Assembly: GCA_035650735.1 (NCBI GenBank)
Contig: DASRGZ010000176.1
Span: 1-43,393 of the forward strand
Direction of reading: 5' to 3'
Length of the DNA stretch: 43,393 nucleotides
From: Chthonomonadaceae bacterium
GTDB taxonomy: Bacteria > Armatimonadota > Chthonomonadetes > Chthonomonadales > Chthonomonadaceae
The stretch's first letter is position 1; each line of letters begins with the position of its first letter. Below, piece after piece: positions 3,689 through 21,560 of the stretch. The notes under the pieces are model-generated. The model was not told where the DNA came from. It saw only the letters and a list, made by a program, of their open reading frames with translations, and did no database searches. Both the position numbers and the translations under genes were made by a program.

Positions 3689-5053
3689 ATGAACATCGCG
3701 ATCTTTTCCGGGGAACTTTCGGGCGACCTGATCGGCGGGGCGCTGGCGCAGGCGATGCGCCGCCGCAGCCCGGAAGCGGCGCTGTGGGGGCTGGGCAGCG
3801 CGGCCATGCGGGCTGCCGGCGTCGAGCTGCTGGCCGACAGCGCGGCGTGGGGCGCCATCAGCATCACCGAGGCGGTGGGCAAAGTTCCCGGCCTGCTCTT
3901 TAACGTGCTGCCGAAGGTCAAGCGCGCCTTACGTGAGCGCCGTCCCGATGTGGTCGTGCTGATCGATTTTGGCGCGTTTAATGTGCGGGTGGCGCGTGCG
4001 GCCAAAGCGCTGGGCCTGAAGGTGCTCTACTACTTCCCGCCGGGCGCCTGGCGGCGCACCGGCACGCACGGGGCGGAGCTTGGACAAATTACCGACGTGC
4101 TGGCGACGCCGTTCCCCTGGTCAGCGGAGCGCTTTCGGCAGCTGGGCGCTAACGCCGTCTGGGTGGGGCATCCGCTGCTGGAGCGCGTGCAGACCACCAT
4201 GTCGCGGGCCGAGTTTGCGGCGCAGTTTGGCATGGACCCGGCCCGGCCCGTCATCGGGATGCTGCCAGGGAGCCGCCATCAGGAGGTAGCGCATCTGATG
4301 CCGACGCTGCTCAGCGCCGCGCGGTTGATTTATCGGCAGGTGCCGGAGGCGCAGTTTGTGGTGGGGGTGGCGCCCTCGATCTCCCAGGAGACCATCGCCA
4401 GATACCTGACCGGACACCAGGAACTGCTGGATCGGCTGGGAGAGATCTGGCACGAGTTTACCCAGGAGGCGGAGACGAAGGTCTGGCGGCGGATGGCGGG
4501 CGCGGCCAATGCCCTCTCGCCCGCGGGCCCCCCGATGCTGGTGACTGCGGGCGGCGTGCTGGTCTCGCCGAAAGCCCTGGAGCAGGAATTGGAGGCGCAG
4601 CGGCGCTCCGAGCGGCTGCATGCGCGCGCCCAAGAGGCGCTCCCGCCGACGGTGCTGGCCAAAGGTTTGACCTATGAGGTGATGGCCCACAGCGATGTGC
4701 TGCTGACCTGCTCCGGTACGGCCACGCTGGAGGCCGCCATCTTCGCAACGCCGATGGTCATCCTGTACCGAGGCTCCAAGATCATGGAGCTTGAGTACAA
4801 GCTGCGCGGCCTGCATAAGAAGCTGGAGTTTATCGGCCTGCCCAATATCCTGGCAGGGTGCTCCATCGTGCCGGAGCTCATTCAATGGGCGGCCACGCCG
4901 GAGGCCATCGCCGAACACGCCTTGAATCTGCTCAACAACCTGGAGACGCGCCACCGCGTTAAGCAGGACCTGCGCGCCGTGACCGAGGCGCTGGGAACGC
5001 CGGGTGCCAGCGACCGCACTGCCGATCTCGTACTGGAGTTGGCCAAGACCTAA
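3689..5053 (+). CDS. lpxB: Lipid-A-disaccharide synthase with internal insertion
   Basis: SGELSGDLIG, VGHPL, LPGSRHQEV, SGTATLEAA, IGLPNILAG, VPELIQ. Confidence 0.93.
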   Translation: MNIAIFSGELSGDLIGGALAQAMRRRSPEAALWGLGSAAMRAAGVELLADSAAWGAISITEAVGKVPGLLFNVLPKVKRALRERRPDVVVLIDFGAFNVRVARAAKALGLKVLYYFPPGAWRRTGTHGAELGQITDVLATPFPWSAERFRQLGANAVWVGHPLLERVQTTMSRAEFAAQFGMDPARPVIGMLPGSRHQEVAHLMPTLLSAARLIYRQVPEAQFVVGVAPSISQETIARYLTGHQELLDRLGEIWHEFTQEAETKVWRRMAGAANALSPAGPPMLVTAGGVLVSPKALEQELEAQRRSERLHARAQEALPPTVLAKGLTYEVMAHSDVLLTCSGTATLEAAIFATPMVILYRGSKIMELEYKLRGLHKKLEFIGLPNILAGCSIVPELIQWAATPEAIAEHALNLLNNLETRHRVKQDLRAVTEALGTPGASDRTADLVLELAKT

Positions 5054-7992: not shown

Positions 7993-9816
7993 ATCTACTA
8001 CGCGCTGTATAACTCCATATTGGCGCTGGGTTCGCCGCTGTTGGGTGCGTACCTGCTGCAGCGGTACCTATCGGGCAAGTCGCGACCGGGCTGGCGCGAG
8101 CGTTGGGGGCATCTGCCGGAGACGCTGCGCTGGCAGCCGGACGGCAGGCCGCGCGTCTGGATACATGCCGTTTCGGCGGGCGAGGTCGTGGCGGCGGCGC
8201 CGATCCTGCGGGAATTGCGTGCGCTCCTACCGGAACATGAACTGCTGCTTTCGGTCATCACGCCGGGCGGTTACGAGATGGCGACGCAGCAGGCATCAAA
8301 GTACGTGGATGCGCTCTTCTACTTCCCGTTTGACCTGCCCTGGGTGGCGCGGCGCGTGGTGGAGACGATTCGCCCGCAGGTATTCGTCAGCCTGGAAAGC
8401 GAACTATGGCCCAACGTCCTGCACGAACTGAAGCGGCAGGGTGCGGCGACCGTAATGGTCAACGGGCGCCTCTCGGAAAAGAGTTTCCGCCGCGCGCAGA
8501 GGTTCGGGCGCGGGATATTCCGCTGGGCGCTCGGTAACGTGGACCGGCTGCTGATGCAATCGGAGGCGGACGCGGAGCGAGTACGTGCGCTAGGCAACCT
8601 GGCCGAGCCGGGGCGCGTGGCCGTGCTCGGCAACTCCAAATTTGACCAGGAGATCAAGCGGCTGACGCCGGAGGAGACTCTGGCCCTGCGCCGGGAACTG
8701 CGGCTGCCTGAGGAGGCGCCCGTCTTTGTGGCCGGAAGCACGCGCAGCCCCGAAGAAGAGGCGCAGGTCATTGCGGCTTACAAGGCGATGCAGGCGCAGG
8801 TTCCCGAGCTCTGCCTGCTGATCGCGCCGCGCCACATCGAGCGCGCCGAAGAGATCGCTGCGGCCATGCGGTCGGCGGGCCTGTCGCCCGTGCGCCGCAC
8901 GCAATTGGCCCGCCCCTTAGAAGACCTCACCCCCGACCCCTCTCCTTCGCAAGGAGAGGGGAGTGGCCCTCACCCCCTGCCCCCCTACTGCCAGGGTCGG
9001 GCCTCAACGGACTGCCAGGGACGCCGCTCAACGGTTCGCGGCTCTGCCTTGCGACACCCCTCCGCCTTGCGATCCACGCTGCGGGAGAGGGGGAACCGAG
9101 AAGCCGGGTCCCCCCCTTCCCTCGCAGGGAAGGGGGACGGGGGGTTAGGTCAAAAGCAGAGGGGAGAGCAGAAGCCTTGTTCTACCCTCCTCCCCGGCCC
9201 TTCTCCCTTGCAGGGAGAAGGGGGAACAGAAGCCAGCACGACCTCTGCCCACGTAGGTGGGCAGCGGGCCTGGCTAGGCGGAGGTTCCGAACCGTTGAGG
9301 AACCGACTCTTGCAGCGCCCAACAGCGGCAGGGTTTAGCCTGCCGGGGGCCGGGGGGTTAGGTGAGGCTACCGTCCGGCATCTCATCCTGGATACGCTGG
9401 GCGAACTGGCGAACGTCTACGCGGTGGCGACATTCGCCTTTGTCGGCAACAGCTTCGAGCCGGTCGTCAAGGGCGGCGGTCAGAACTTGCTCCAGCCTCT
9501 CGCGCACGGCAAACCGGTGCTCTTTGGCCCGCGCACGGCCACGATTCGCTCGGAAGTGGCACTGGCGGTGGGGGCAGGCGTCGGGTTCCAGGTGGCCGAG
9601 GGCGCGGCGCTGGCGGCGGAAGGCTTGCGCCTGCTCTCCGATGTGGCGGCCCGCCAGGAAATCGAGCGCCGTGCCCTCGCGCTGATCGCCGCCAACCAGG
9701 GCGTCTCGGCCAGATACGCGCAGGCGGTGGCGGAGATGGCAAACGAATCGCGTCGCCCTTTGGGGAACCCCTCGGCTCTCGGCCCGAAGGCGCGGCTGAG
9801 GAGACAGCAGCCGTGA
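7993..9816 (+). CDS. waaA: 3-deoxy-D-manno-octulosonic acid (Kdo) transferase with 147-codon repeat-derived insertion
   Basis: WIHAVSAGEV, FPFDLP, ESELWPN, NGRLSEKS, GNSKFD, AGST, IAPRHIER, DTLGEL..Y, FVGNS. Start inferred at ATC 7993; the ORF track uses TTG 8020. Confidence 0.93.
   Translation: MYYALYNSILALGSPLLGAYLLQRYLSGKSRPGWRERWGHLPETLRWQPDGRPRVWIHAVSAGEVVAAAPILRELRALLPEHELLLSVITPGGYEMATQQASKYVDALFYFPFDLPWVARRVVETIRPQVFVSLESELWPNVLHELKRQGAATVMVNGRLSEKSFRRAQRFGRGIFRWALGNVDRLLMQSEADAERVRALGNLAEPGRVAVLGNSKFDQEIKRLTPEETLALRRELRLPEEAPVFVAGSTRSPEEEAQVIAAYKAMQAQVPELCLLIAPRHIERAEEIAAAMRSAGLSPVRRTQLARPLEDLTPDPSPSQGEGSGPHPLPPYCQGRASTDCQGRRSTVRGSALRHPSALRSTLRERGNREAGSPPSLAGKGDGGLGQKQRGEQKPCSTLLPGPSPLQGEGGTEASTTSAHVGGQRAWLGGGSEPLRNRLLQRPTAAGFSLPGAGGLGEATVRHLILDTLGELANVYAVATFAFVGNSFEPVVKGGGQNLLQPLAHGKPVLFGPRTATIRSEVALAVGAGVGFQVAEGAALAAEGLRLLSDVAARQEIERRALALIAANQGVSARYAQAVAEMANESRRPLGNPSALGPKARLRRQQP
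8923..9363. repeat. Composite repeat array (REP-like palindromes plus nested hairpin units) inserted in frame in waaA
   Basis: Begins ACCTCACCCCCGACCCC and ends GGGGCCGGGGGGTTAGGT. Modules are shared with intergenic arrays at 13470, 20221, 25931, 27704 and 42935. Confidence 0.92.
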
Positions 9817-13805: not shown

Positions 13806-13901
13806 TTGGTAATCCCTCCCAACCGTGTTGACGCTTCTCATGGAGCGCACGCTTTTGAGATGTATCCACACGATTGGGGGTGTCTACGGGAGTTTTACCA
13901 A
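13806..13901 (+). promoter_or_regulatory. Long imperfect 5'-UTR hairpin that occludes the kdoO RBS and start codon
   Basis: Pairings TTGGTAA/TTACCAA, TCCC/GGGA(G), CTCCCAACCGTGT/ACACGATTGGGGG, TCTCA/TGAGA, GAGCG/CGCTT. Confidence 0.5.
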
Positions 13902-21522: not shown

Positions 21523-21560
21523 TTCCCCGGCAGGCTCAACCCTGCCGCATTCAGGCGGAG

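Follow-up and report, generated by a model that had tools for sequence, protein, structure and literature searches.

A nested mosaic of palindromic repeats carried in frame within the waaA gene of a Chthonomonadaceae bacterium

The gene for Kdo transferase, waaA, is normally essential as part of the lipid A pathway, and the question raised by the waaA of a Chthonomonadaceae bacterium (assembly GCA_035650735.1) is how such a gene can contain some 450 bp of dispersed repeats and still present one unbroken reading frame. The gene lies in a window of 43,393 nucleotides (the whole stretch of DNA that was analysed, contig DASRGZ010000176.1), to which positions refer unless another contig is named. 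Its product of 598 amino acids matches the Pfam family Glycos_transf_N (PF04413, 194 bits versus a cut-off of 23.9) and the WaaA of Aquifex aeolicus (PDB 2XCI, E 7e-22); Armatimonadota, with Chthonomonadales among them, are at the top of the named relatives in the WaaA alignment. The best score against the NCBIfam WaaA equivalog is 273 versus a cut-off of 438, a shortfall that could reflect either distance or the insert. The surrounding operon is of the lipid A/LPS type (lpxB, an msbA-like ABC exporter, lpxK, an acyltransferase and heptosyltransferases), and the reading frames of its other genes are intact. PF04413 is matched only once in this genome, which is 97.6% complete, and this rules against the second, intact waaA that a preliminary description of the locus had considered.

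8020..9816, + strand: waaA (Kdo transferase), identified by the PF04413 profile and by a fold match to 2XCI; sole copy in the genome
9813..10931, + strand: lpxK, the start of which overlaps the waaA stop

Elsewhere in the window, the LpxB open reading frame (3689-5053) matches its Pfam model in two stretches separated by an apparent insert of approximately 80 residues, for which no repeat was flagged, and the C-terminal extension of a fabZ-like open reading frame overlaps the called start of an lpxA-like gene by 59 nt (2816-2874).

The preliminary description gave waaA 147 extra codons starting at 8923. A large repeat-built insert in frame within WaaA is borne out by the stop-free open reading frame and its PF04413 match, but neither figure stands: the left boundary of the repeat lies at approximately 8907-8908, 15 bp to the left, and the mosaic comprises 456 bp or 152 codons, a net gain of 149 over the modal loop of 40 residues. 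The interval 8923-9363 is stop-free in the WaaA frame alone, with 1-5 stops in each of the other five frames. The loop is indeed short in known WaaA proteins, as had been stated: measured between APR and D[TS]xGEL, it has 189 amino acids here, 40 in a genome of the same genus (G001) and 38-43 in 23 of the 27 parsed relatives (29 loci surveyed, two of them unparsed), and it spans 36-68 amino acids in distant loci (50 of 80 parsed). Relative to Aquifex WaaA, 167 residues (288-454) stand in place of 13 (250-262). No target duplication is visible at the present flanks of the insert, which may differ from the exact pre-insertion allele. The two ends are complementary over 11 nt (91%), in agreement with the preliminary description, and are thus equivalent to terminal inverted repeats, as in MITEs. 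No intein Hint domain was found in a Pfam scan of the product, which returned PF04413 alone and agrees with the lack of intein motifs noted earlier; no terminator-like site was found on the + strand within the insert. The mosaic was resolved into the following parts:

8908..9363, + strand: whole repeat mosaic
8908..8920, + strand: degenerate left-end arm, with a motif that has 19 genome matches at up to 4 mismatches and is common to in-frame copies on contigs C56 and C145
8921..8963, + strand: module A, a hairpin resembling BoxC and the triplex motif, with a third, C-rich arm; 4 substitutions off the TM_ECO consensus; 195 full-length paralogous matches
8964..9098, + strand: module B, a BoxC-like hairpin split by two nested units of the 45-bp type; net +84 nt versus the empty module on C145
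8987..9072, + strand: U1, outer 45-bp-type unit, interrupting module B
9011..9056, + strand: U2, inner 45-bp-type unit in the loop of U1; junction found at 23 other places
9099..9150, - strand: module C, an inverted BoxC-like hairpin
9151..9234, + strand: linker and module D, a BoxC-like hairpin; module D is 4 substitutions off the TM_ECO consensus
9235..9346, + strand: module E, two hairpins, interrupted by U3; the second hairpin has 22 nt (9325-9346)
9271..9316, - strand: U3, inverted 45-bp-type unit; net +42 nt, with a sense codon at 9310-9312
9347..9363, + strand: right end, which complements the beginning of module A

This dissection upholds the two-deep nest (8987-9072 encloses 9011-9056) and the inverted unit (9271-9316) of the preliminary description, as well as its match of the hairpin at 9325-9346 to 21527-21548 in inverted orientation (21 of 22 bases). 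The palindromes that it called REP-like are better described as BoxC/triplex-motif-like, and no RAYT was found. Nor are the several separate insertions within waaA that it envisaged required: the junctions of the nest are present at 23-91 other places in the genome, and intergenic copies also exist of the right-hand hairpin together with its inverted unit, so the blocks pre-existed and could have arrived in a few steps. The insert has 1878 local alignments to its own genome. Three joints between blocks each recur at 2-6 other places and one joint at none; the best other locus covers at most 313 of the 441 bases, and the full 456-bp mosaic is unique in the genome. The modules of the left half are 0-1 bases from their nearest paralogues and those of the right half 1-4 bases, with private alleles at 9308 (0 of 84) and 9321 (2 of 234), a divergence that hints at two ages for the halves but is confounded by copy number.

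Modules A-D belong to a large dispersed family, with 364-377 matches to the relaxed BoxC-like motif in this genome; the BoxC-like hairpin also turns up in 8 of 24 further genomes from the family. The modules miss the strict TM_ECO consensus (the best need four substitutions), which has 5 matches elsewhere in the genome, and their arrangement, present in many dispersed copies, is that of a purine/pyrimidine hairpin with a third, G-rich arm behind it. The arms of the 45-bp unit are fixed, its central stem covaries, and the unit takes the place of 2-4 target bases; its exact pattern is found in 283 copies here, in one copy each in G001 and another relative (G019), and in none of 38 other relatives. 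The possibility that the unit keeps frame intrinsically was rejected, 249 of 280 simple units having a 19-nt middle (net +43, read from the flanks) and nested modules occurring in all three phases. Across the genome (6.5 Mb on 224 contigs, from environmental samples, with 4693 genes according to our own gene caller), 997 clusters of these families were identified, of which 856 are intergenic, 78 are at contig edges, 36 are at gene ends and 27 are in frame wholly inside genes. A dispersed 80-nt repeat of another family occurs in the window (13807-13886) and on contig C166 (G000:C166:13678-13757).

The intergenic copies provide several figures against which the open frame of waaA can be set, which overlap and are not independent tests, a shift in one module possibly being offset in another. 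Within intergenic clusters of 400-700 bp (n = 26), only 5% of frames are open, and of the 666 alignments of intergenic sequence to the insert, 368 carry a net frameshift. Read in the WaaA frame, 7-58% of the intergenic copies have TAG at six codons, which fall on variable positions of the unit, and the probability of no stop calculated from the column frequencies is 0.056; stops number 16.7 per 1000 codons in the WaaA frame versus 7.5 in the most open frame of the element. Of 29 intergenic copies of module B with its nested units, 4 stay in frame and lack a stop, as does 1 of 24 such copies of module E with its unit; both variants are present in waaA. The subfamily of U3 (10 copies) has TAG at the equivalent of 9310-9312 in 9 copies, the sole exception being the U3 of waaA. 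Because stops and frameshifts are common in the intergenic copies, the open frame of the insert is evidently a filtered rarity and not intrinsic to the element, and the selection for an open frame proposed in the preliminary description is supported.

The 27 in-gene clusters, a class that is stop-free by construction, have lengths of 41-565 bp and lie on both strands and in several frames. Their hosts include LigA, MurD, PurL, PrmC, a UvrD-like helicase, a GlnE-like adenylyltransferase and HpnI, and the inserts in the first four of these were confirmed by comparison with a relative (G004):

G000:C104:13264-13498 (L037), strand not given: LigA insert, in the adenylation domain
G000:C186:37659-37882 (L039), strand not given: MurD insert
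G000:C32:15123-15350 (L038), strand not given: PurL insert
G000:C94:15941-16121 (L044), strand not given: PrmC insert

All four proteins pass their NCBIfam cut-offs despite the inserts. LigA has 120 amino acids at the site of insertion versus 5-32 in 22 relatives, and MurD has 91 versus 6-21 in 20 relatives, with one match to each protein in the genome. A split-flank test, in which 919 clusters were compared with 2.4 of the 3.4 Mb of G004, matched 166 clusters on both flanks, 17 of them within one G004 frame: 14 split a single orthologue, all of them in frame and stop-free, and the other three lie between separate genes, with starts of their own, that are fused in G004. The screens for broken frames, which cover genes with a strong coding signal or a G004 orthologue, turned up no frame-breaking insert; 13 candidates for broken frames outside the intragenic class, picked by coding score, were rejected by eye as the end of one gene followed by the start of the next. 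The longest in-frame cluster (G000:C105:17693-18257, L031; 565 bp or approximately 188 codons) follows a D-Ala-D-Ala carboxypeptidase-like domain.

Some of the same loops carry repeats in other species. The murD gene of G001 (L107:558-683) encodes a 39-residue BoxC-like doublet in the same loop, with the same first module as the 91-residue nested version; the doublet may date from a common ancestor, with growth afterwards, or the loop may have been hit twice independently. The waaA gene of G022, which belongs to another genus, has 36 additional codons in frame in the same loop (L009:2382-2526), composed of a related hairpin doublet with 55 matches within the G022 genome, and this insert is independent of the one described here. 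The WaaA loop of G016 is longer by 33 residues. That of G028 is longer by 13 residues, and its hairpin-like but single-copy sequence was not counted as repeat.

Both halves of waaA have dN/dS values of 0.11-0.22 against four relatives, which mostly cover the time before the insertion, so that a very recently killed gene would look alike. The flanks retain 72 of 72 highly conserved columns and show no surplus of derived changes over G001 (14 versus 13 and 4 versus 8). AlphaFold2, with 28 relatives in the alignment, produced a confident two-domain model (377 residues with pLDDT of at least 90) with the GT-B fold on either side of the insert, and the best Foldseek match of this model is Aquifex WaaA (2XCI, E 9e-21). 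Residues 313-445 were modelled as coil with pLDDT below 50, a low value to be expected anywhere that alignment depth is lacking. The composition of the insert (18% glycine, 12% proline, and 14.5% hydrophobic residues versus 32% in the host protein) looks disorder-like. The product is likely, to judge from the model, an intact and active Kdo transferase with a disordered loop of approximately 150 residues; the low-confidence coil favours the tolerated, disordered loop suggested in the preliminary description.

Most probably, repeat blocks insert at random, and those that enter genes survive as stop-free, in-frame variants in permissive loops, where they would be translated as passengers. BoxC-like hairpins and the 45-bp unit, which inserts into hairpin loops, would multiply chiefly in intergenic DNA and combine into composites, of which one to a few pre-assembled blocks likely entered the length-tolerant loop in the C-terminal domain of WaaA once this lineage and its sister species G001 had separated. 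Alleles with a stop or a frameshift were likely all cleared by purifying selection on the enzyme, and hence the surviving copy would keep only frame-keeping, stop-free module variants. The resulting loop would most likely be a neutral or slightly costly passenger; the predicted RNA of the insert is very stable (-263 kcal/mol), and such an RNA could lower expression. A precedent is the guanylate kinase of Rickettsia with a palindromic element insert, which is translated and active according to PMC2229807. We infer translation, activity and essentiality for waaA, and likewise the number and order of events.

It is improbable that the insertion recently crippled or killed a dispensable waaA, the frame of which is open by chance and has not had time to decay. 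Parts of the insert must be young if the near-identity of the left half to its paralogues is a guide, and an open composite of 450 bp has a chance of approximately 0.05 (no stop) times one third (frame); however, the right half has accumulated 1-4 mutations per module, private alleles among them, during which all of the conserved columns were kept. The same pattern in LigA and MurD, each with a single genome match, the lack of frame-breaking inserts in the screens and the intact frames of the lipid A operon also oppose decay. Misassembly of a repeat-rich metagenome bin, which the preliminary description had named as a possible flaw, is hardly credible. Although none of the listed contig pieces spans the whole insert, independently built contigs from four public runs (X1, X2, X3 and X5) cross both junctions between gene and insert with 0 differences (100% identity), many inner junctions are covered by run contigs at single-copy depth, and no joint that bypasses the whole insert is among the run-contig joints listed. 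These runs (labelled soil 2017 / mine 2024) are of similar depth and may be the source sample or non-independent data, such as one data set filed twice; no RNA run was among the listed holders of the locus, which has no bearing on expression. A second database record, on a longer contig, has the same 598-amino acid WaaA, identical but for the start residue, and a third (P0007) reaches into the insert for 75 residues and differs there by a single substitution (residue 315), either a strain variant or an error; moreover, a chimera would rarely stay in frame in 14 of 14 genes.

Removal or skipping of the insert at the RNA level (splicing, RNase cleavage with ligation, or a ribosome hop) by way of its paired ends, which would yield a WaaA of normal length and had been raised as a speculation, is very improbable. 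The ends do pair and close a large folded domain in the predicted RNA (z = -5.7), but removal predicts that internal stops would be harmless and tolerated, and none is seen: rare stop-free variants are kept at each variable site, and every one of the 14 intragenic inserts confirmed by an orthologue keeps the frame and lacks stops. An Rfam scan of the insert gave 25 weak matches, all far under the gathering score, with no group I or group II intron family, and the in-gene copies occur in both orientations and with different ends. Acquisition of a function by the loops, for instance as an interaction or degradation tag shared by several enzymes, is likewise very improbable. Such a tag might be suggested by five unrelated genes, waaA and those on contigs C56, C145, C49 and C139, in which one module family is read in a common frame and encodes near-identical peptide stretches, but the filtering of a common element would lead to a shared frame anyway, and other in-gene copies are on the reverse strand or in other frames. 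The site is empty in G001, and a protein search with the insert region, restricted to lengths of 328-1047, returned 4 database matches, at least 3 of them from this organism to judge by length and contig size.

The insert may be compared with several known systems. The likeness to Rickettsia palindromic elements (RPEs) drawn in the preliminary description, along with the greater length and composite structure noted there, is supported by the in-frame repeats in conserved genes: both are dispersed palindromic repeats that are found between genes and also fused in frame, and tolerated, in genes of conserved enzymes. The likeness rests on organisation, no sequence relationship being expected. RPEs (Ogata et al. 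2000, 2002), as described in two reports (PMC2229807, PMC10969869), are single elements of 105-146 bp whose peptide is conserved, with close to half of them in open reading frames. The insert in waaA, in contrast, is a nested mosaic of 456 bp, about three times longer than those single elements as so described; only 27 of 997 clusters are intragenic, in several frames and on both strands, against the nearly half given there for RPEs; and the host has a 6.5-Mb environmental genome, the open frame there being a scarce variant that survived filtering. By analogy, the insert seems to work as RPEs do but is not one.

Modules A-D share with the BoxC/PIT intrastrand triplex repeat TM_ECO of E. coli the hairpin with a third G/C arm and the frequent occurrence in inverted pairs. 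They differ in being four substitutions off the strict consensus, in being interrupted by the 45-bp unit and in lying in coding frames, TM_ECO being "always located intergenically" in E. coli K-12 according to Holder et al. 2015 (PMC4666352). REPINs, similarly, are almost exclusively extragenic according to a preprint (bioRxiv 10.1101/2021.07.10.451892). The repeats here resemble REP sequences and REPINs in being short palindromes in inverted pairs, in hundreds of copies and mostly extragenic; they differ from REPIN-RAYT systems in that there is no RAYT, and the intact Y1 transposase is beside another palindrome subfamily. The cyanobacterial SDR1/4/5 repeats (attributed to Elhai et al. 2008) are reportedly very small structured units of 21-27 nt that nest in their own copies; the unit here, in contrast, is 45 nt long, with a central stem that covaries, and takes the place of 2-4 target bases. 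The protein resembles the canonical WaaA/KdtA of Aquifex aeolicus in sequence, predicted fold and operon context, and differs from it in the 167 residues that occupy the position of 13. No literature was found on repeat inserts in WaaA, on coding copies of BoxC or on the repeats of this lineage, in a search that covered subscription papers thinly. The principle of coding palindromes dates from 2000; what is unusual here is how large and how nested the insert is, that the filter can be measured, and that the same loops of core enzymes have been hit more than once.

These observations extend coding palindromes from short single elements of reduced intracellular genomes to long nested mosaics in core enzymes encoded by a large environmental genome, and tie coding inserts to BoxC-like repeats, which in E. 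coli are described as confined to intergenic DNA. The hundreds of intergenic sister copies serve as a null distribution, so that selection for read-through can be measured, as is rarely possible. The 27 sites, some of which have been struck in further species as well, point to loops able to accommodate large inserts (WaaA, LigA, MurD, PurL), and in this bacterium new protein loops likely arise from repeat DNA again and again. A bolder proposal, to which we would give slightly less than an even chance, is that the hairpins and the self-nesting element grow stepwise within core enzymes, ratcheting up disordered loops of 40-190 residues, with the same loops hit again elsewhere and a mobiliser other than RAYT. 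If true, stepwise growth in WaaA, DNA ligase, MurD, PurL and PrmC would amount to a natural, genome-wide insertion scan of essential proteins, with a size per insert far above that of the Rickettsia case.

The 45-bp unit also offers a route to the question of what mobilises BoxC-type and very small repeats. No RAYT flanked by the repeats of the insert was found on the 224 contigs of the genome, where an unassembled gene is possible, nor was a cognate transposase for the mosaic found in the genome. Three matches to Y1 transposases are present; the intact one is of the IS200/IS605 type (RAYT score of 32 versus a cut-off of 80) and a second is apparently frameshifted, and a RAYT mobiliser was rejected accordingly. 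Both Y1 genes on contig C166 are flanked by other palindrome subfamilies. Our best guess is a nuclease that recognises hairpins and acts in trans, combined with recombination between copies. No small nuclease open reading frame stood out by eye in 14 gaps of 250-750 bp between clusters, and no small DUF559 nuclease gene is assembled in this genome, where DUF559 occurs only as a domain in a frame of 1561 codons. Among the relatives, BoxC-like motifs are near 3 of 15 DUF559 loci (6 matches in 44.6 kb versus 3 in 283 kb of housekeeping loci), a modest adjacency that would provide a lead only. Four of the small DUF559 genes in relatives (L248, L239, L243 and L234) have BoxC-like hairpins at distances of 22-400 bp.
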